Under the pieces are notes generated by a model, which was given only the letters and a program-made list of their open reading frames with translations, did no database searches and was not told where the DNA came from. DNA of 64,000 nucleotides, from contig CAVYNH010000006.1 in NCBI GenBank assembly GCA_963769885.1, positions 416,001 through 480,000 of the forward strand. Reading direction: 5' to 3'. Below, one piece after another: positions 4,734 through 47,996 of the stretch. Origin of the DNA: Methanobacteriota archaeon (GTDB lineage Archaea > Thermoplasmatota > E2 > DHVEG-1). Within the stretch, counting starts at the first letter, position 1, and each line of letters opens with the position of its first letter. Made by a program: the position numbers and the translations under genes.

Positions 4734-4869
4734 GCCAGAGGACCTTCCCCCCTCCCCTCCTTTTCTTTTCGAGTCTCTTCTCTGTTCTTCCTAATTCCCC
4801 CTAGTCCCTAAGGAGTTCCCGGCTTGATCCGCGTCAACCCCCCCGCTTCATTGTACAATAATTATTAGA

Positions 4870-4940
4870 CAGCCCCGGGCGGATTTGAACCGCCGACGTT
4901 GGCTCCAAAGGCCAAAATGTTGCCACTACACCACGGGGCT
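4870..4940 (-). tRNA. tRNA-Gln (anticodon UUG)
   Basis: AGCCCCG TG GTGT AGTGGCA ACAT T TTGGC CTTTGGA GCCAA CGTC GGCGG TTCAAAT CCGCC CGGGGCT G; full cloverleaf, A1-U72, discriminator G, no encoded CCA. Confidence 0.95.
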
Positions 4941-4968
4941 CCACGCAGCAAGGGAAAACAGCCACAGG

Positions 4969-4980
4969 ATTTTAAGGTTT
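4969..4980 (-). promoter_or_regulatory. Putative BRE/TATA for tRNA-Gln(UUG), overlapping the glnS stop codon
   Basis: Minus strand AAACCTTAAAAT about 30 nt upstream of the tRNA 5' end. Confidence 0.5.
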
Positions 4981-6654
4981 AGCACCCGCCGCGCCCTGGA
5001 TCTTCCCCCAGGTATCCCGCAGCTCCACCGACCGATTCAACACCAAACGCGTCGCAGTCGACCCCGGATCCACGCAGAAATACCCCAGCCGCTCGAACTG
5101 GAACCGGTCCAATGGCTTGCAGTGACGGACCGTCGGCTCGACCTTACAGCCATGCAGGACCTCAAGAGACCGCGGGTTCAGGAACTCCTTGAAATCCGCC
5201 CCCTTCTGATCCAGCGGGTCGCGTACCGTGAACAGCTTGTTGTAGAGCCGGACCTCCGCCTCCACCGCATGCCGGGCAGAGACCCAATGGATCGTGGACT
5301 TCACCTTGCGGCCGTCCGGGGCGTACCCACCCTTGGTCTGCGGGTCGTACGTACAGCGCAACTCCACGACCCGACCATCCTTCTTCACGACATCCTTGCA
5401 GGTGATGAAGTACGCGTACCGCAATCTGACCTCGCGGCCGGGCGCGAGCCGATAGAACTTCGGCGGCGGCTGCTCCATGAAATCCTCCTGCTCGATGAAC
5501 AGGGTCTTGGAGAACGGGATCCGTCGGGACCCCATGGACGGGTCCTCGGGGTTGTTGACCGCCTCGACCTCCTCGGTCGTCTCAGGATAGTTCTCGATCG
5601 TCACCTTCAACGGCCGCAGCACACCCATGTACCGCGGTGCCGCCCTGTTGAGGTCATCGCGGATGCAGTGCTCCAGGAACTCGTAGTCGACGATGCTGTT
5701 GAACTTCGCGACCCCGATGCGCTTGGAGAACAACCGAATCCCCGAGGGCGAGTACCCGCGCCGGCGCATCCCGGAGATCGTCGGCAGCCTCGGGTCGTCC
5801 CACCCGTTGACGTACTTCCCCTCGACGAGCTGCAGCAGCAGCCGCTTGCTCATCACCGTAAAGGTGAGGTTCAGCCGTGCGAACTCGATCTGCTGCGGAT
5901 GATACACCCCGAGCGCGTCCAGGAACCAATCGTACAGCGGCCGATGGTTCTCAAACTCCAGCGTACAGATGGAATGCGTGATCCGCTCAAGGGAATCCTC
6001 CAGCCCATGCGCCCAGTCGTACATCGGGTAGATACACCATTTATCCCCCGTGTTGTGGTGCGTCGCATGCAGGATGCGGTACATCACCGGGTCCCGCAAG
6101 TTCAGGTTCGGATGGTTCATGTCGATCTTCGCACGCAGGACCTTGGAGCCGTCCGGGAACTCCCCCGCCTTCATGCGGCGGAACAAGGAGAGGTTTTCCT
6201 CGATGGAGCGGTCGCGGAAGGGACCATTGATCCCGGGCTTGGTGAGCGTGCCGCGCAGGTCAGCGATCTGGTCTGCGGTCAAGTCGTCGACATAGGCCTT
6301 CCCTTTCTTGATGAGGTCCTCGGCGTACGCGTACATCTGGTCAAAGTAATTCGAGGCGTAGAACAGCCGGTCCTGCCAGTCGAACCCCAGCCATTTCACA
6401 TCGGTGATGATGGACTGGACGTACTCCTCCTCCTCTTTCGCGGGGTTCGTGTCATCGAACCGCAGGTTGCACTTCCCGTGGTACTCCTCGGCGATCCCGA
6501 AGTTCAGGCAGATGGACTTCGCATGGCCGATGTGCAGATAGCCGTTCGGTTCTGGGGGAAACCTGGTGTGTACGCGGCCCTGGTACTTCCCTGACTGAAG
6601 GTCCGCGTCGATGATTTCCCGGATAAAATCCCTGCTCGCTTGCTGTTCGCCCAT
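4972..6654 (-). CDS. glnS: Glutamine--tRNA ligase, bacterial type (no YqeY extension)
   Basis: [122 protein letters not shown]; 560 aa. Confidence 0.95.
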
Positions 6655-6695
6655 CTGACACCGACTCCCACATCAGACTCACTAGGAGTAGACAG

Positions 6696-6767
6696 CAGCC
6701 CCGAGCGGATTCGAACCGCTGACAAGAGATCCAGAGTCTCCTATGTTAACCGCTACACCACGGGGCT
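6696..6767 (-). tRNA. tRNA-Gln (anticodon CUG)
   Basis: AGCCCCG TG GTGT AGCGGTTA ACAT A GGAGA CTCTGGA TCTCT TGTC AGCGG TTCGAAT CCGCT CGGGGCT G; cloverleaf, A1-U72, discriminator G. Confidence 0.95.
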
Positions 6768-6807: not shown

Positions 6808-6820
6808 TATATAACCTTTC
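6808..6820 (-). promoter_or_regulatory. BRE+TATA promoter for tRNA-Gln(CUG)-glnS
   Basis: Minus strand GAAAGGTTATATA about 40 nt upstream of the tRNA. Confidence 0.6.
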
Positions 6821-7604: not shown

Positions 7605-8552
7605 TTATGGTCTGGTGAACAGGATTCCACCGTCGGAGGTGGAAGCGGTGAGGGTGTCGGCGTTGGTGACGTAAATGGTTATCCCCCGGCGGTATGCGCT
7701 ACTGACCCAGATGATGTAGTCCGCGGGCTCCGCGGGGTGGGCGAGCACATTGGGGATCAGGATCCCGCTGATGTTTTCCCCTGATTCGAGGAGTATTTCC
7801 ACGTGGTCGCGGGTCTGGGTGATCGTCGCGTTCTCGACTTGGGTGGCGTTGCCGTCCACGTCGTAGAAGGTCGCGGTCCAGTTCCCTGCGATGACCGGGT
7901 AGGTCGCCGCAGGCTCGATCTTGAGGAGGGTGGCGGTCACGTCGTCGAGGTAGTAGGTGCGGTTGGTCTCCCAGGTGCCCCAGACGCCGATGGCGGGGTA
8001 GAGGAGACCGGTGTCGGTGGTGGTGACGAAGTCGTAGGATTTCGTGAGCCAGGTGAGGGTGCCGTTGTCTTGGCCGTTGTCGGTGGTGTCTTGGTAGGTG
8101 AGGTCGGCTTTTGTGGGGGGCTGGGTGGTGACGCCGGTGATAATGGTGAAGGCGTTTACGCCGTAGTCCATGGAGGCGAGCTGGTAGGTGACGGTGATGT
8201 AGTATTGGGTGTTGGGTTGTGCGTGGATGGCTCTCTGGATCCAGATCTTGCCGGCGTCGTTGAGGTTGTTGAGGTAGAGTTCGAGGCTGCGGTTGCCGTC
8301 GTAGGACTGGTTGCTTGTGGGGGTGATCCACCAGGTGATGGGGGGGTCGAGCAGGTCGGTGCCGTTGGCGGTCCAGTTGTCCATGGAGGTTTCGAAGGAG
8401 CTGTAGGTGGTGTTCGCGGCCGGGGGGTTCTGCACGAGGGGCTGGGTGGCTGGTCTGCTGGTGAGGATGAGGGTGACGGCGGCCGAGGTGATGGAGAAGA
8501 TGATGAGGCAGCTGGCGAGGATGGCTTTGGTGACGAGGCGCATGATGACCAA
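7605..8552 (-). CDS. Secreted/membrane-anchored hypothetical protein with carbohydrate-binding-like beta domain
   Basis: N-terminal hydrophobic helix; SFET...SYDGNRSLEL...YYLDDV pattern. Confidence 0.6.
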   Translation of the reverse strand: MVIMRLVTKAILASCLIIFSITSAAVTLILTSRPATQPLVQNPPAANTTYSSFETSMDNWTANGTDLLDPPITWWITPTSNQSYDGNRSLELYLNNLNDAGKIWIQRAIHAQPNTQYYITVTYQLASMDYGVNAFTIITGVTTQPPTKADLTYQDTTDNGQDNGTLTWLTKSYDFVTTTDTGLLYPAIGVWGTWETNRTYYLDDVTATLLKIEPAATYPVIAGNWTATFYDVDGNATQVENATITQTRDHVEILLESGENISGILIPNVLAHPAEPADYIIWVSSAYRRGITIYVTNADTLTASTSDGGILFTRP

Positions 8553-9044
8553 GTATTGGGATAGGATCAGGTCTTTTTACCCTTGTGGAAAATGTTTGGG
8601 AATCGCCGAACTACTCGGGGTGGGTTAAGGTTGTGTGAAGACAATCGAAGTTTTGTCAGCGAGGAAGCAGCCGTAGAGGGGGCAGGTGGTCTGTTTGGTG
8701 ATGTCGTCGGTCTCGAACTCCCGCCGGCGGCAGAGATGGAGGACGATGGCCTTCAGGGGTGAGGTTAATACCGGTTGTTATTTGGGGATAGTGGAAAAAT
8801 GCTCGTAGAATATCGCAGTCACGTTGTTTTCGGTCCTTGTCTTTTTGTACACTAGGGGTTCAGGGGGGTGAGGCGCGGGGAGCCAGTAAAGCCTTTTGAG
8901 ATTAAGATACCCGAATTAAAATTGTTAAAAACATGAATTAAAACCGTGTTAATACTTCTGTTTTGAATTTTTATCTATTACAAACATTTAAATAAATGTG
9001 CAATATATTTAATCATGTCCTGATGTAACAGGGGAGGCAAGAAT

Positions 9045-9500
9045 ATGAGAGAAAGAACTATTTTGAAGAAAGCTGGAGTTTTTTCCGTGATAGCAGTATT
9101 GCTATTGACTGCGACTGGTATGACAGTAAGTGCAAGAAACGATACGACACAATCGGTCACCACTTGTGCACCCATTGGTGACCCAACGAATGTCACCTTC
9201 AACTTCAAAGGCGGTTTCGGTTTCACTATTGTGATAACAAATACTGGTAACGCAACAATGGCCATCAAAAATTGGACCTACAACATAAACATGACTCTGG
9301 GTCTGATTCTCCTTGGCAAAACAAAGAGTGGTACTAACATAACGCTTGCGCCAGGAGCATCAACCAAAATAAAAACGATACCCATCGGCATAGGTGTAGG
9401 AACTGTTGAAATTAACATGTCCGTGCCTGATGAATATGTGTATGAATATTGGGAACGTGTTTATTTTATCGGTCCTTTTGTTCTACCACCCCAATCATAG
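9045..9500 (+). CDS. Small secreted protein: signal peptide plus one Ig/CARDB-like module; AT-rich
   Basis: GGGGAGG SD; signal peptide; GG..FTIVITNTGNAT...GLILLG...LAPGA...IGIG...FIGPFVL. Confidence 0.7.
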   Translation: MRERTILKKAGVFSVIAVLLLTATGMTVSARNDTTQSVTTCAPIGDPTNVTFNFKGGFGFTIVITNTGNATMAIKNWTYNINMTLGLILLGKTKSGTNITLAPGASTKIKTIPIGIGVGTVEINMSVPDEYVYEYWERVYFIGPFVLPPQS

Positions 9501-9970
9501 ATAGCTAAAATCGACAACATACTTCCATAGAACATCCATTCGCTCTCTTTCTTATTTTTTTGCTTTCGCACAAAAAAACCATGATCAATTTTTGTCTCAA
9601 AACCATGTCAATACTTGCATCAAAAACAATGATAGATTTATATACTACAAGAAAAAACCTAAATTCAATCCCGTTTTCTATTGTTTACGTCAAGTCGACA
9701 TGCGTTTATACCGTGTTAATGCTTCTGATTTCTAAGGATATGTTTTTATTGAATTTTTTGAACTAATGATGCTATACCTAAGTGATAAGAACAAGAATGA
9801 CCTGCGGGTGATGATTACGCTGAAGAAATCAGGAATCATTCTCTCCGAGAAAATACGGCTTCTTTGGCATTTTTTTTCATTCGGAAGTACCGGAGCCTTC
9901 CCTCCTAAGAGAAAACCACCTCGGTGGAAGCGCTTAAAAACCCCCGCGAAGTATCCACCACCGACCCCCC

Positions 9971-10378
9971 ATGCATGAATGGGCCCTCGCCGAATCAATC
10001 CTCGCCGCCGCAGAAACCACCGCGGCCGACCAACACTTCAAGAAAATCAGCAGAATCACTATCAACCTCGGCGAACTCCAAAACATCGACCGCGGCATCC
10101 TACGCTTCGCGCTCAAAGAACTCGCCAAGGAACGCCCCCGTTTCACCGCAACGAGATTCAGCTTCAGAACCGAAGCAACAACCTTCTCCTGCACCGCCTG
10201 CCGCCAGCACTGGAGCCTCGCCGACATCAAACAAAAACTCACCAGCGACGAGGCAGAGGCGATCCACTTCATCCCCGAGGCCGCCCTCAGCTACGTCCGC
10301 TGCCCCCACTGCGGCAGCCCCGACTACCACATCCTCACCGGCCGCGGCGTCACCCTCGCCACCATCACCGGAGACTAA
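9971..10378 (+). CDS. hypA: Hydrogenase nickel metallochaperone HypA
   Basis: MHEWALA N-terminus, CTAC and CPHC zinc motifs, EAIHFIPE insert, TGRGV. Confidence 0.92.
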   Translation: MHEWALAESILAAAETTAADQHFKKISRITINLGELQNIDRGILRFALKELAKERPRFTATRFSFRTEATTFSCTACRQHWSLADIKQKLTSDEAEAIHFIPEAALSYVRCPHCGSPDYHILTGRGVTLATITGD

Positions 10379-39087: not shown

Positions 39088-40791
39088 CTACTTGTGGGTG
39101 AACACCCCGGTCAGCGTAGGCTCCCGGGCGTCGATCCGCACGAACCCGTACCGTTCGAATTGGACGATCTCCCCGACGGGGAGGCCGCCGACCGCCTGCT
39201 CCGCGTACCCCTCCGTGCTCTGCAGACTCTCAGGGTTGAACTCTTCATGGACGAAGAGGGACCCTGGGCGGACGATGGTCATCCGGATAAACTGGTCCGT
39301 CGTCCACTGCAGTTTCACGGACTCCGGCAGGATCGTCTCACCAGCGTACCCGCCGGCCAGCTCCTTGCCGGCATGCGTGAGCTTGATGTTGCAGAGGTCC
39401 TTGAGCCGGAAGACATCCCCTTTCTTGAACCGAGCGACATCCTCCCGCGGCACATAGAACACGGACGAAAGCGCGATTTCCCGCTCGCCCATCGCAGCCG
39501 CCGGATGCAGCCGAACCCGCTTCACCTTCAACGGCAGACCCGAGACGGTCAGTTTCACCGGATCCGGCACGAAAAAGAACCGCTTCACCCGAGGATCCAG
39601 AATCTTCCGATTCGCAGCCTCGACCAGGCTGAAGTCCACCACCGACTCCACCTTCGAAGTCCCCTGGGACACGACGAACTGGCGGATCGCCTCCGGCACG
39701 ATCCCCCGACGACACAGACCGCGCAGCGTCGGCAATCGCACATCATCAAACCCGGAGACCAGCCCCTGCTCGATGAGCGGCTTGATCTTCCGCTTCGACA
39801 CCGGCATCCCCTCGATGGAGAGCCGCGCGAACTCCATCAACTGAGGCTGCCGCAGCCCGAGCTTCTCCAGGATATGGAAGTACACCTCATCCCGCAGCTC
39901 ATACTCCTTCGTCCGGAACGGATGCGTCACCCCACTAAGGCTATCCTCGACCGCCCCCGCAAAATCATACGTCGGCCACAGCCGATACCGTGTCCCGGTC
40001 AATGGATGGGGGGATTCGATCACCCGGAACAACGTCGGGTCACGCATCGCCGTGTTCTTACTCGCCATATCGCCCTTCAGACGCAGGATCCCGTTCTCCA
40101 CCGATCCATCGATTAGCCCGTCGAGCAGCGCCCTCGAATCCTTGCGAGTCCGACACGCACAAGCCATCCCCTTGAACCGCGACTCACGAATCACCTCGGA
40201 AAGACAGGAACAGACATACGCATCACCCTGAACAATCAGCTGCCGGGCAAGCTCATAGTGCCGCGGAAGATGATCGGAGGTGTTGTATTCCTCATCCCAC
40301 GCGACCCCCAGCCACCGCAGGTCATCCCTCTGCGCCTCGTAGAACTCCTGCTGCGCATTCTCCGGGTTCGTGTCATCAAACCGCAAGATGAATTTCCCGT
40401 CGTACATCCGCGCGTACTCGCTGTCGATGATCGCCGCCTTCGCATGACCGATATGTAAATACCCGTTCGGCTCCGGCGGAAACCGGGTGACCACCCGCCC
40501 CTTCTGCGCCTCAGGCAGCGGAGGCAGCGCATACTCGCGCTTCTTCCTCTCCCGATGGAGGAGCTCAGGGGCAATCGCGGTCAGCTCCGTCCGCTGCTGC
40601 TCCACCGTCAACGCGTTGACCGCGGCGACGGCCTCATGGACAACGGGCATGATCTCCTTTGGGGAGACGGTGGTGCCTTTGAAGGCAGCGATGACCTTAC
40701 CGGCGACCGCCTTCTCGTTCGCCTTCCCGTCGAACTGCACGGCGTTCTGCAAGGCGTACTTACGTGCCTCATCGAAAAGCGAGCCGGGCAT
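39088..40791 (-). CDS. gltX: Glutamate--tRNA ligase, archaeal type
   Basis: ARKYALQNAV archaeal N-terminal domain, [40 protein letters not shown]. Confidence 0.93.
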   Translation of the reverse strand: MPGSLFDEARKYALQNAVQFDGKANEKAVAGKVIAAFKGTTVSPKEIMPVVHEAVAAVNALTVEQQRTELTAIAPELLHRERKKREYALPPLPEAQKGRVVTRFPPEPNGYLHIGHAKAAIIDSEYARMYDGKFILRFDDTNPENAQQEFYEAQRDDLRWLGVAWDEEYNTSDHLPRHYELARQLIVQGDAYVCSCLSEVIRESRFKGMACACRTRKDSRALLDGLIDGSVENGILRLKGDMASKNTAMRDPTLFRVIESPHPLTGTRYRLWPTYDFAGAVEDSLSGVTHPFRTKEYELRDEVYFHILEKLGLRQPQLMEFARLSIEGMPVSKRKIKPLIEQGLVSGFDDVRLPTLRGLCRRGIVPEAIRQFVVSQGTSKVESVVDFSLVEAANRKILDPRVKRFFFVPDPVKLTVSGLPLKVKRVRLHPAAAMGEREIALSSVFYVPREDVARFKKGDVFRLKDLCNIKLTHAGKELAGGYAGETILPESVKLQWTTDQFIRMTIVRPGSLFVHEEFNPESLQSTEGYAEQAVGGLPVGEIVQFERYGFVRIDAREPTLTGVFTHK

Positions 40792-46166: not shown

Positions 46167-47996
46167 TTATAGGAGAAAAGCTGTAGTTTTTCTTAAAAGT
46201 ATTTGACAACCCAGATGTGAGTCTCGGGTACTGTTACCGGAGGCATCGTAGGCGACTGCACTGACTTTGTGCTCTCCAAAGGAGAGAGCCCTCCAGGTCC
46301 ATTGGTAGGGCGCCTGGGTGTCGGTGGCTTTGATAGAGTCATCAAGGAGGAAGTCGACGTGGACGATGCCGAAGGGCGTCTGACTTGCGTTCGCCTCTAT
46401 CGTAAGTGGTCCAATGGCGAAGGGCTCTTTGGTTCGGAACATCTGATGATTGAGAATGTAGAGGAAACAATGCGGTCTGGTGATTTGAACCGCAGGGTGT
46501 TCGTACACAATGCTGACCACAGCGGTATCGGAGCTGTGGTTGCCATCATTATCAGTGACAGTTACGATCGCAGTGTAGCTGCCGACGGTCGCATAGGTGT
46601 GACTTGGATTCGGTTGATCTGAGGAGTTTCCATCGCCGAAGTCCCAGTGATAGGTGTATGGTGGTGTGCCGCCGAAGGCATCGCTTCTGAATTGGACCGC
46701 TTTTTGGTAGAAACCGTTGTATGGGCCGTAGGCATCAATAATGAGCGGCCCGCGGCCGAAGGCATAGAGATAACAGTATCCATCACTATTTTTACAACCG
46801 ATATAGACAGTGCCATCTTCACCAATAGCAGGCGACGAGTCTACCCAGCCAGAGGAAACCAAAATTTGCTCCCAGCGTTTGGTCCCGCTAGGGTTGATAG
46901 CAATGATTTTTCCTCCTTCAGCGTCTCCAATATGGGCACCGATGTAGACGATACCTTCGGCTGAGATTGCGGGTGAGGACCATTCAATAAAGCTACTGGA
47001 ATCAAGCACATAGGTCCAGCGCATCGTTCCATTCGGATTGATGGTGTAAATATCTTTGCCACCAATGTAAATGATCCCATCAGGTCCAATCGAGGGATTG
47101 ACTTTAGAACCAGATCCAATACGACAACGCCAGACCAACGAACCATTCGAGGGATTAAGGGCATATAAGTAGCCGTCCCAAGAGGCGATGTACACGGTGC
47201 CATCCGCGGCAATAGAGGCGGATCCCATGACGCGATCGCCAGTCTTGTATCGCCAGCGGAGTGCTCCATTCGGATTCACCGCATAAATATAGGTATCCGC
47301 GGAACCAAAGAAAATCCCTCCATCCAAGCCAATGACCGGTGCAGAGGTAACATACCATCCTGTATGATACCGCCACAATTCTGCCCCATTGGGAGTAAAT
47401 GCTATCAGACTGTTTTCAGGATCGTTAGTTGTAATATAGATTGTTCCATCATCAGCGATGACGGGAGAGCCATAACTGATAATGGAGCGGCAATTATAGG
47501 CCCATTTCACGGTCCCATCAGGATTAAAGGCATACATGTATTTGTTCCAGCATCCAACATAAATTGTTCCGTCAGCAGCAATGGCTGGCGTGGTTTCAAC
47601 AAATCCACCCGTATTTTCACCCATATAACGGCGCCATTTCATGGTTCCATTCAAGTAGGCAGCATTCATATAGAAATCGTTGCTCCCGAAATACAAAACG
47701 CCGTCCTTATCAATGGCAATCCCACCATCAATGGAAAAGGGGCCTACAAGTAACCGCCATTTTATTATCCCTGGAGAATCAGCGGTCGAGTACGGGCTCA
47801 GACCTGTATGTCGGGTATCATGGCAAGCCATCGGCCATGAAGAATTCTGCAGACCTCCAAATGAGACGCCAAGAATATTCTGAGAGTGCTCCTTGGTTGA
47901 CTGCGTCGCGACCGAGGGCGGGAAAAAACATTGAGCAATCATCAACCCCGCAAGAACAAGAAGACCAAACGCTCTGACCGGGCTCATCGGCGTCAC
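46167..47996 (-). CDS. Secreted PQQ-like beta-propeller + PKD + Ig-like protein (true end possibly 46193)
   Basis: Signal peptide, WPMACHDTRHTG, repeated SxPxI..DG.IY.G...YA.NPxG..KW blades, WDFGDG PKD, AYDASGN; lower GC. Confidence 0.85.
   Translation of the reverse strand: MTPMSPVRAFGLLVLAGLMIAQCFFPPSVATQSTKEHSQNILGVSFGGLQNSSWPMACHDTRHTGLSPYSTADSPGIIKWRLLVGPFSIDGGIAIDKDGVLYFGSNDFYMNAAYLNGTMKWRRYMGENTGGFVETTPAIAADGTIYVGCWNKYMYAFNPDGTVKWAYNCRSIISYGSPVIADDGTIYITTNDPENSLIAFTPNGAELWRYHTGWYVTSAPVIGLDGGIFFGSADTYIYAVNPNGALRWRYKTGDRVMGSASIAADGTVYIASWDGYLYALNPSNGSLVWRCRIGSGSKVNPSIGPDGIIYIGGKDIYTINPNGTMRWTYVLDSSSFIEWSSPAISAEGIVYIGAHIGDAEGGKIIAINPSGTKRWEQILVSSGWVDSSPAIGEDGTVYIGCKNSDGYCYLYAFGRGPLIIDAYGPYNGFYQKAVQFRSDAFGGTPPYTYHWDFGDGNSSDQPNPSHTYATVGSYTAIVTVTDNDGNHSSDTAVVSIVYEHPAVQITRPHCFLYILNHQMFRTKEPFAIGPLTIEANASQTPFGIVHVDFLLDDSIKATDTQAPYQWTWRALSFGEHKVSAVAYDASGNSTRDSHLGCQILLRKTTAFLL

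Follow-up and report, generated by a model that had tools for sequence, protein, structure and literature searches.

Introduction

Reviews from 2012 (PMC3439900), 2016 (PMC5388404) and 2022 (PMC9499178) state that archaea lack glutaminyl-tRNA synthetase (GlnRS) and always use the GatDE amidotransferase, which in the archaeal indirect pathway of Gln-tRNA(Gln) formation works together with a non-discriminating GluRS (PDB 3AII). The same statement has been used in arguments about a late, eukaryotic origin of GlnRS and about the co-evolution of GatDE with archaeal tRNA-Gln. Archaeal non-discriminating GluRS is without the tRNA modules of GlnRS, namely the unpairing loop (residues 132-141, E. coli numbering), the G36-recognition loop (392-407) and the proximal β-barrel loop (473-494) (PMC2978374). 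On the tRNA side, the identity set of E. coli GlnRS comprises a weak 1:72 pair, G2:C71, G3:C70, G73, G10, the anticodon, A37 and U38 (PMC9976931, PMC9499178). When charging is reorganised, alterations at the acceptor end and in the D-arm separate the identities of tRNA-Gln and tRNA-Glu, according to PMC2777447 and PMC9976931, the latter citing Salazar et al. 2003.

For a transfer of GlnRS to Archaea, PMC8879553 cites Furukawa et al. 2017, and the preprint bioRxiv 10.1101/2024.07.04.601786 briefly mentions annotated GlnRS in Asgard archaea (Hodarchaeales, Kariarchaeaceae), which belong to a different phylum from the lineage considered here. The glnS genes described below are themselves annotated by NCBI, yet reviews up to 2022 still deny archaeal GlnRS.

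Here, we analyse a 64,000-nt stretch of DNA (the window) from an uncultured Thermoplasmatota archaeon, in which glnS lies between two tRNA-Gln genes. We propose, with a probability of roughly 0.85, that Gln-tRNA(Gln) is formed directly in this archaeon. A bacterial-type GlnRS, acquired essentially once, would have taken over from non-discriminating GluRS and GatDE, since lost, while the native tRNAs were retuned. The presence of GlnRS in a Thermoplasmatota archaeon is at odds with what the reviews say about archaea, and it concerns a large, environmentally common archaeal group.

A synthetase gene between two glutamine tRNAs

The locus comprises tRNA-Gln(CUG), glnS and tRNA-Gln(UUG), all co-oriented on the (-) strand and separated by a gap of 41 nt between G73 and the start codon and by one of 31 nt between the stop codon and the second tRNA (Table 1). 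ARAGORN and Rfam reproduce exactly the arrangement and both gaps given in a preliminary description of the window, the Rfam scores of 61 and 63 bits comparing with a gathering score of 29 bits. The 560-aa reading frame reported there is likewise present with all of the quoted GlnRS motifs, including EVRLRYAY, and the GluRS from which it had been distinguished is indeed a separate gene. Neighbouring genes, Trm1 and this GluRS among them, are archaeal in character, as had been claimed.

Table 1. Positions of the glnS locus elements and of GluRS within the window.
Feature	Position	Strand	Basis
Putative archaeal promoter (purine-rich BRE + TATA box, AAAGGTTATATA)	6808..6819	(-)	Read from sequence
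tRNA-Gln(CUG)	6696..6767	(-)	ARAGORN; Rfam tRNA 61.1 bits
41-nt spacer, tRNA-Gln(CUG) to glnS	6655..6695	(-)	Sequence reading
glnS, bacterial-type GlnRS, 560 aa	4972..6654	(-)	TIGR00440, Pfam, PDB matches, trees
tRNA-Gln(UUG)	4870..4940	(-)	ARAGORN; Rfam 63.2 bits
T/A-rich stretch TCTAATAATTATTGT, possible oligo-T terminator	4850..4869	(-)	3' of tRNA-Gln(UUG)
Archaeal-type GluRS (context)	39088..40791	(-)	NF003169, TIGR00463

The putative promoter element AAAGGTTATATA lies 41 nt from the downstream tRNA-Gln(CUG), and the same element, or its variants AAAAGTTATATA and AAAGGTTAAATA, is found at about this distance 5' of tRNA-Gln(CUG) in eight loci of other genera; it probably acts as a promoter. 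The spacer between tRNA-Gln(CUG) and glnS contains a Shine-Dalgarno-like GGTG (6659-6662) 4 nt ahead of the start codon (GGTG TCAG ATG), while no TATA-like element was seen within its 41 nt, which suggests that glnS is co-transcribed with the upstream tRNA; GGTG or GGAG also precedes the glnS start codon in relatives. Beyond the second tRNA, the stretch TCTAATAATTATTGT might serve as an oligo-T terminator, and the T-runs after this tRNA are clearer in relatives than here. The whole unit would probably be transcribed from the one conserved promoter 5' of tRNA-Gln(CUG), the tRNAs then being excised by RNase P and RNase Z. A bacterial sigma-70 promoter scan was set aside as inapplicable to archaea.

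Many other genera in the family show this tRNA-glnS-tRNA order too, whereas the nearest bacterial glnS loci have no adjoining tRNA; the linkage of glnS to its tRNAs is archaeal. The compact, domesticated unit envisaged in the preliminary description stands as a tRNA-glnS-tRNA unit, but placement of the second tRNA as close as 31 nt is confined to the window's genus. Other genera have 62-233 nt at this point, gaps that look like holding a separate promoter for the second tRNA. As noted above, the genes carry NCBI annotations, but no paper in the literature searched describes such an arrangement in this lineage.

Class and ancestry of the synthetase

Against the GlnRS equivalog model TIGR00440 the protein scores 722.8 bits (cut-off 425.8), and against the archaeal GluRS model TIGR00463 it scores 355 bits, under the cut-off of 401.75. 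It possesses the Pfam tRNA-synt_1c domain and both anticodon-binding domains, with the class I motifs HIGH (residues 41-44) and VMSKR (267-271). The GlnRSs of Pseudomonas aeruginosa (PDB 5BNZ, 721 bits) and E. coli (1GTR/1QTQ/1O0B; 697 bits for the 1GTR family) have the same domains and are collinear with it over their full length at ~60% identity. Alignment to these two enzymes is gapless through the unpairing loop (Leu136) and the G36-recognition loop (Arg402), and the 473-494 proximal β-barrel loop is present with a length that differs by 2 residues. Leu136, Arg341 and Arg402 are kept in the 13 archaeal GlnRSs of the family, apart from a single Val at Leu136. The four positions aligned to E. 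coli Arg30, Tyr211, Cys229 and Gln255, which we take to be glutamine-pocket residues, are all identical. Judged by these sequence features, the protein is a true GlnRS. An Asn at the position of E. coli Asp235 was considered as an archaeal adaptation to C3:G70 and ruled out, since Asn is common at this position in bacterial GlnRSs, the nearest ones included.

All trees were built by quick IQ-TREE searches under LG+G4. In one of them, 33 of 34 Thermoplasmatota GlnRSs form one clade (SH-aLRT 99) that lies inside bacterial GlnRS, with Sumerlaeota and Planctomycetota sequences as neighbours. Neither the eukaryote-like GlnRS clade nor the GluRS encoded in the window joins the bacterial group that contains the protein. 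The branch that unites the archaeal clade with the nearest bacterial GlnRSs has an SH-aLRT of 86 in this tree (90-91 in another), and the bacterial donor is poorly resolved. The placement agrees with the horizontal acquisition, and with the nesting in bacterial GlnRS, that had been expected at the outset, with the refinement that the acquisition appears to be old and phylum-wide and no local event. A bacterial-type GlnRS would thus have entered the Thermoplasmatota from a bacterium essentially once.

Because the source is a metagenome-assembled genome and the protein shares 66-71% identity with bacterial GlnRSs, an assembly or binning artefact that wrongly joined a bacterial glnS to archaeal DNA has to be weighed. 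The gene, however, sits 421 kb into a 785-kb contig, among archaeal tRNAs and genes, and its base composition is ameliorated and native, with a GC3 of 0.85 against 0.73-0.85 in its neighbours and a matching GC content. The module is also present, in conserved order, in more than 30 independent assemblies whose GlnRSs form an archaeal-only clade, and the closest database homologues (78-91% identical) are all labelled Thermoplasmatota where named. A chimeric join is implausible in view of these observations, and we consider the chance of an artefact negligible.

GatDE and GluRS in the window's genome and its relatives

Across a sample of 401 Thermoplasmatota genomes, GatE is found in 364 and GlnRS in 74, of which 46 also possess GatE; among the 37 genomes without GatE, 28 have GlnRS. 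Expressed as shares of the sampled species, 18% have GlnRS and ~7% have GlnRS but not GatE. Both pathways coexist in genus g18 and in families f9 and f24, and the complete GatDE route is in use among relatives from sister families. A GluRS tree was tried as a species proxy for counting GatDE losses and abandoned, as it lacks resolution inside the family; its starred branches force at least two changes.

The window's genome (2.09 Mb, 0.45% contaminated) is 92.4% complete, and in this assembly neither GatE nor GatB gave a match and GatD was not found, the sole match being an asparaginase-like sequence of 37 bits. AsnRS (425 bits) and GlnA (494 bits) are present. These absences lend support to the earlier suggestion that transamidation may have been replaced. 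GatD, GatE and GatB are also missing from a congener (G001) and from another 16 genomes in the family that have GlnRS, among them the single-scaffold assemblies G008 and G412, the absence of GatE from G412 being inferred from the tally. Within the window's lineage, GlnRS would have replaced the ancestral route of non-discriminating GluRS and GatDE, which would have been lost.

Given the incompleteness of the assembly, and given the 46 genomes of the phylum sample in which GlnRS and GatE occur together, both pathways might instead coexist in this organism, with gatD and gatE lying in the ~8% of the genome that is unassembled. Coexistence would need GatD, GatE and GatB all to be absent from the assembly by chance, and it sits poorly with their repeated absence from the family genomes just described. 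Moreover, both dual-pathway genomes that were checked keep an A73-type tRNA-Gln, whereas neither such a tRNA nor a relic of one was found in the window's genome. We therefore regard coexistence as very unlikely.

If glutamine is attached directly, as we propose, the GluRS of this genome must not leave Glu on tRNA-Gln, and would have stopped mischarging it once no amidotransferase remained to correct the product. The window's GluRS is of the same archaeal type as that of the indirect pathway (NF003169, 522.2 bits, cut-off 516; TIGR00463, 487.8 bits). A switch to a discriminating form is not visible in the protein, as no alignment column was found that separates genomes without GatE from GatE-bearing relatives; identity within the two groups equals that between them (64-65%). 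A fixed substitution marking such a switch was also sought under relaxed criteria and rejected, as this returned one weak Y/F column only.

tRNA-Gln variants and the two charging routes

The genome has only two tRNA-Gln genes, and both flank glnS. tRNA-Gln(CUG) has A1:U72, G2:C71, C3:G70, G10, G73 and an 8-nt D-loop, and tRNA-Gln(UUG) has A1:U72, G73 and a 7-nt D-loop; the tRNA-Glu of the same genome has A73 and a long D-arm. The body of the two tRNAs (A1:U72, acceptor stem) is shared with tRNA-Gln of the archaeal indirect pathway, which in turn has GatDE and A73, whereas the window's genome has GlnRS, G73 and a shorter D-loop, with GatD and GatE not found.

A comparison of tRNA features across 41 relatives follows the same division. 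G73 together with a short D-loop occurs in 30 tRNA-Gln genes from 18 genomes, and these genes flank glnS wherever glnS is assembled. One genome, G003, has a G73 tRNA-Gln without a glnS match and is uninformative, as its scaffold is interrupted by a gap of 100 N that lies 1.1 kb downstream from that tRNA. A73 with a long, tRNA-Glu-like D-arm is found in all 24 tRNA-Gln genes recovered from 16 GatE-bearing genomes, and G014 and G018, in which GlnRS and GatE are both present, have a third, A73-type tRNA-Gln. For both isoacceptors, the G73 form agrees in its anticodon stem with the A73 form of the same isoacceptor, which indicates that the change from A73 to G73 was parallel in the two isoacceptors. 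The possibility that archaeal GlnRSs of this clade universally require G73 was ruled out, since the glnS-adjacent tRNA-Gln has A73 in family f40 (in G117 and G179, neither of which has GatE), in f4, in a single genome of f13 and in L099; the clade does not strictly require G73.

In the sequence of events that we favour, both tRNAs would be native archaeal tRNAs of this organism that were moved to either side of glnS. The two isoacceptors would each have exchanged discriminator A73 for G73, the base used by E. coli GlnRS, and shortened the D-loop by 1-2 nt with loss of the tRNA-Glu-like GGUCAAUCAU arm. These changes would probably have made them good GlnRS substrates, and would probably also have moved them out of the recognition space shared with tRNA-Glu. 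The same principle of synthetase-tRNA co-evolution is seen in Helicobacter pylori GluRS2/tRNA-Gln (PMC2777447), although there one copy of a duplicated GluRS has become specialised and the amidotransferase is retained, whereas here a foreign GlnRS appears to have been adopted and the amidotransferase lost.

Of the E. coli identity set, the window's glutamine tRNAs have G73, G2:C71, G10 and the YUG anticodon; their 1:72 pair is weak as well (A:U, where E. coli tRNA-Gln has U1:A72). They depart from the set in having C3:G70 rather than G3:C70 and G37/A38 rather than A37/U38. These unmatched elements could be taken to mean that the GlnRS homologue is not the main source of Gln-tRNA, serving instead one isoacceptor or a regulatory or other role, or that an unrecognised amidotransferase acts behind an unchanged non-discriminating GluRS. 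The lack of a GluRS change that tracks GatE loss points in the same direction, as does a divergent GatE-like paralogue (~540 bits) in some relatives, such as G015, G022 and G052. In the window's genome, however, nothing resembling GatE or GatB was found; its GlnRS, a protein strongly conserved across the clade, has intact residues for catalysis, glutamine binding and anticodon reading; and both isoacceptors are linked to glnS and changed alike. We thus judge these alternatives very unlikely, and direct formation of Gln-tRNA(Gln) remains our preferred explanation.

Archaeal tRNA-Gln was reportedly proposed by Tumbula et al. (2000) to be orthogonal to GlnRS. It is conceivable, at somewhat short of even odds, that the genomes compared here record how this supposed barrier to GlnRS transfer was overcome. 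A second set of native tRNA-Gln genes would have come to lie next to the foreign synthetase and been retuned through D-loop shortening and, in several lineages, through the change from A73 to G73, giving two mutually insulated systems in one cell, with the A73 tRNA served by non-discriminating GluRS and GatDE and the G73 tRNA by GlnRS. This two-system stage would survive in G014 and G018, GatDE and the old tRNAs would have been lost repeatedly afterwards, and the window's genome would represent the final stage, in which tRNA-glnS-tRNA has been condensed to one transcription unit.

Matched relatives with GatDE only, with both routes or with GlnRS only, together with their tRNA variants, make a defined experiment possible on two questions opened by this locus: which changes in a tRNA allow an imported synthetase to capture an essential codon family, and which exclude the resident GluRS. 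Naturally insulated GlnRS/tRNA pairs may also be of interest to engineers of orthogonal translation.

A minor point concerns the naming of these proteins. The best NCBIfam model for the window's GlnRS is that of the Deinococcus-type enzyme with a C-terminal YqeY domain (NF011291, 851 bits; PMC1865053), which is matched over model positions 10-560 of 769, and NCBI names the archaeal proteins accordingly. The name is misleading, since the archaeal protein stops at 560 aa without the YqeY tail of the Deinococcus type; the corresponding structure (PDB 2HZ7) scores 509 bits, below the E. coli and P. aeruginosa enzymes.

A glutaminyl-tRNA synthetase between the two tRNA-Gln genes

The preliminary description reported a bacterial-type glutaminyl-tRNA synthetase (GlnRS) between both tRNA-Gln genes and proposed that a horizontally acquired glnS may have replaced transamidation; the observation is real and its reading is supported. 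All protein motifs quoted there occur in the 560-aa ORF, and the three genes share one orientation, with spacers of 41 nt and 31 nt. Both tRNA genes score 61-63 bits with the Rfam tRNA model (gathering score 29). The locus lies 421 kb into a 785-kb contig of a 2.09-Mb genome (7 contigs, completeness 92.4%, contamination 0.45%), and its neighbourhood includes an archaeal-type GluRS, Trm1 and dCTP deaminase. The composition of glnS (GC 0.61, GC3 0.85; neighbouring genes, GC3 0.73-0.85) is fully ameliorated to the host.

Elsewhere in the window, one ORF has a GC of 0.50 and a GC3 of 0.51, versus about 0.75-0.85 in its neighbours, and another interval is low in GC (0.47); both patches may be foreign or recently gained DNA. 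Beyond the window, ARAGORN called a 91-nt 'tRNA-???' whose anticodon has four bases (gtag); it may be a miscalled intron-containing tRNA.

Coordinates of features in the window and in related genomes (G, genome, G000 being the window's own; C, contig; L, extracted glnS locus of a relative)
Feature	Sequence	Position	Strand
tRNA-Gln(CUG)	window	6696-6767	minus
glnS ORF, 560 aa	window	4972-6654	minus
tRNA-Gln(UUG)	window	4870-4940	minus
Putative BRE + TATA box	window	6808-6819	
Archaeal-type GluRS	window	39088-40791	
Low-GC ORF	window	46167-47996	minus
Low-GC interval	window	8001-10000	
'tRNA-???'	G000:C6	618985-619075	
Divergent GatE-like paralogue	G015:C9	35088-36959	
Divergent GatE-like paralogue	G022:C1	36778-38652	
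Locus L011	G008:C1	595579-600153	
Locus L143	G054:C67	27457-31031	
Tandem tRNA-Gln(CUG) pair	L099	1259-1556	

The protein scores 722.8 bits against the NCBIfam glnS equivalog model (cut-off 425.8) and does not reach the threshold of the model for archaeal GluRS; its Pfam domains comprise the class Ib catalytic domain and both beta-barrel anticodon-binding domains. Comparison with solved structures gave 721 bits for Pseudomonas aeruginosa GlnRS (5BNZ), about 697 for the E. coli GlnRS family (1GTR), 509 for Deinococcus (2HZ7), 469 for human and 415 for yeast GlnRS, and 194 for an archaeal non-discriminating GluRS (3AII). Three modules of GlnRS are missing from archaeal GluRS, namely the unpairing, G36-recognition and proximal-barrel loops (PMC2978374). 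The first two (Leu136 and Arg402 in E. coli GlnRS) align to the archaeal protein without gaps, and the third is also present, with a 2-residue length difference from E. coli. Positions matching E. coli Arg30, Tyr211, Cys229 and Gln255 are conserved; an Asn at the Asp235 position was considered as an adaptation and rejected, being inherited from bacteria. The top NCBIfam model is a GlnRS/YqeY fusion, and NCBI names these proteins accordingly, although the archaeal protein ends at 560 aa without a YqeY tail.

A candidate sole route to Gln-tRNA

Neither GatE nor GatB was found in the window's genome, and the sole match to GatD was asparaginase-like (37 bits); these are absences from a metagenome-assembled genome, 92.4% complete, as are those from the relatives. 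The genome encodes AsnRS (425 bits, cut-off 343) and glutamine synthetase (494 bits). ARAGORN found 44 tRNA genes genome-wide, of which the two for tRNA-Gln are exactly the glnS-flanking pair, and BLAST with ancestral-type tRNA-Gln revealed no relic elsewhere in the genome. At the sequence level, these results support a known family, bacterial-type GlnRS, serving an archaeon as its sole route to Gln-tRNA.

Reviews have stated outright that GlnRS is missing from all known archaea (PMC9499178, 2022; PMC5388404, 2016), and a further 2022 review assigns the indirect route to 'almost all archaea' and has archaeal Gln-tRNA formation 'always' proceed through it (PMC8762117). Transfer of GlnRS to Archaea is asserted without detail in PMC8879553, and a 2024 preprint mentions GlnRS in passing beside cox genes of Heimdallarchaeia (bioRxiv 10.1101/2024.07.04.601786). 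Our search for GlnRS or glutaminyl-tRNA in Thermoplasmat*, or for archaeal GlnRS, returned no account of such a system; the genes described here are already annotated by NCBI and JGI.

Origin of glnS

Trees of 79 named bacterial GlnRS and eukaryote-like representatives, rooted on the window's GluRS, placed 13 GlnRS from the window's family (f1) in one clade (SH-aLRT 99-100). When 20 GlnRS from other families were added, 33 of 34 Thermoplasmatota sequences formed one clade (support 99) nested within bacterial GlnRS and adjoining Sumerlaeota and Pirellulales sequences (66-71% identity; join support 86), all trees being quick LG+G4 searches. This topology fits a single transfer from a bacterium to archaea in the distant past, with vertical descent thereafter and probably some spread of glnS inside Thermoplasmatota. 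The one sequence outside the clade, from f22 (locus L143), is placed next to sequences of Planctomycetota and Anaerolineae, and no tRNA adjoins its gene; either it was acquired independently, as a second event, or it was binned in error.

Identity features of the linked tRNAs

Both window tRNA-Gln genes begin 5' AGCCCCG and end CGGGGCU-G 3', thus carrying the archaeal A1:U72, G2:C71 and C3:G70 pairs yet discriminator G73; in reviews, A73 is described as usual for archaea and G73 as the determinant for bacterial GlnRS (PMC9499178; PMC9976931). Among tRNA-Gln genes from 41 relatives, G73 with a 7-8-nt D-loop (GGUUAACAU or GGCAACAU) occurs in 30 genes of 18 genomes, adjoining glnS in every case where glnS was assembled, and A73 with a 9-nt D-loop (GGUCAAUCAU or GGUCAAGCAU) occurs in 24/24 genes of 16 GatE-bearing genomes. 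The window genome's tRNA-Glu has A73 and a long D-arm like that of the A73 tRNA-Gln.

G73 tRNAs share the anticodon stem, and 83-88% full-length identity, with A73 isoacceptors of the same anticodon, and are therefore native archaeal tRNAs altered in parallel that did not arrive together with glnS. No tRNA adjoins glnS at the nearest bacterial loci. The window's glnS is packaged with native tRNAs that appear retuned. A strict requirement for G73 is ruled out by glnS-linked tRNA-Gln genes with A73, mostly with a short D-loop, in f40 (no GatE), f4, one f13 genome and locus L099, so that D-loop shortening is the more general correlate. No GluRS residue tracks the loss of GatE; should anything exclude GluRS from tRNA-Gln, the evidence places it in the tRNAs.

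L099 (uncultured Thermoplasmata archaeon ERP119294_co1_428) carries a tandem pair of tRNA-Gln(CUG) genes upstream of glnS and divergent from it, one intact with A73 and the other pseudogene-like, with a corrupted T-arm and 3' end.

Putative expression signals

A putative BRE and TATA box, AAAGGTTATATA, precedes tRNA-Gln(CUG) by 41 nt, and 8 other genera conserve both its sequence and its position. The 41-nt spacer preceding glnS has no TATA-like element and holds a Shine-Dalgarno-like GGTG 4 nt from the ATG (GGTG TCAG ATG), a motif also present in relatives. The tight 31-32-nt gap 5' of tRNA-Gln(UUG) is confined to the window's genus; in other genera the gap spans 62-233 nt, is AT-rich and contains TATA-like runs, and in one it reaches about 1 kb. 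From this layout, the simplest reading of the window's locus would be one tRNA-mRNA-tRNA transcript, cut by RNase P and RNase Z.

Distribution and coexistence of the two pathways

GlnRS scored above cut-off in 16 of 41 close relatives, every one in f1; sister families had GluRS only, and GatE in all but one. Across 401 evenly drawn Thermoplasmatota genomes, GlnRS passed the cut-off in 74: 34 in f1 (window's genome included), 10/12 in f9, 14/24 in f24, and others in f4, f12, f13, f20, f22, f40, f42, f43, f46 and f49. GatE occurred in 364 of the 401, and 28 of the 37 genomes without it carry GlnRS. Complete replacement, as in the window's genome, occurs in 18 f1 genomes and in f12, f22, f40, f42 and f46.

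By cross-tabulation, 46/74 GlnRS-bearing genomes have GatE and 28/74 do not; coexistence is typical of genus g18, f9 and f24. Related genomes preserve intermediate stages of replacement: G014 and G018, with both pathways, combine the glnS-adjacent G73 pair with a third tRNA-Gln(CUG), located elsewhere, of the A73, long D-loop type. The 'both pathways' count may be inflated, because several GlnRS-bearing genomes have only a divergent GatE-like paralogue (about 540 bits; canonical GatE 650-700). This f1 paralogue occurs in G015, G022 (alongside canonical GatE), G052, G192, G232, G314, G396 and G418, and is absent from the window's genome.

In locus L011, whose genome lacks GatE, the ~976-nt interval from the glnS stop to tRNA-Gln(UUG) contains a decayed, ancestral-type tRNA-Gln(UUG)-like sequence (CAAUCAU D-arm, A73, two acceptor-stem mismatches, no ARAGORN call) that may be a leftover of the old tRNA set. 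No tRNA-Glu adjoins the glnS module in the window; elsewhere one often follows directly, UUC behind tRNA-Gln(UUG) in f1 (L004, L009, L011, L052) and CUC immediately behind glnS in f24, f40 and f49 (L144, L145, L147, L148, L153), so that Gln and Glu tRNA genes cluster around glnS in many lineages.
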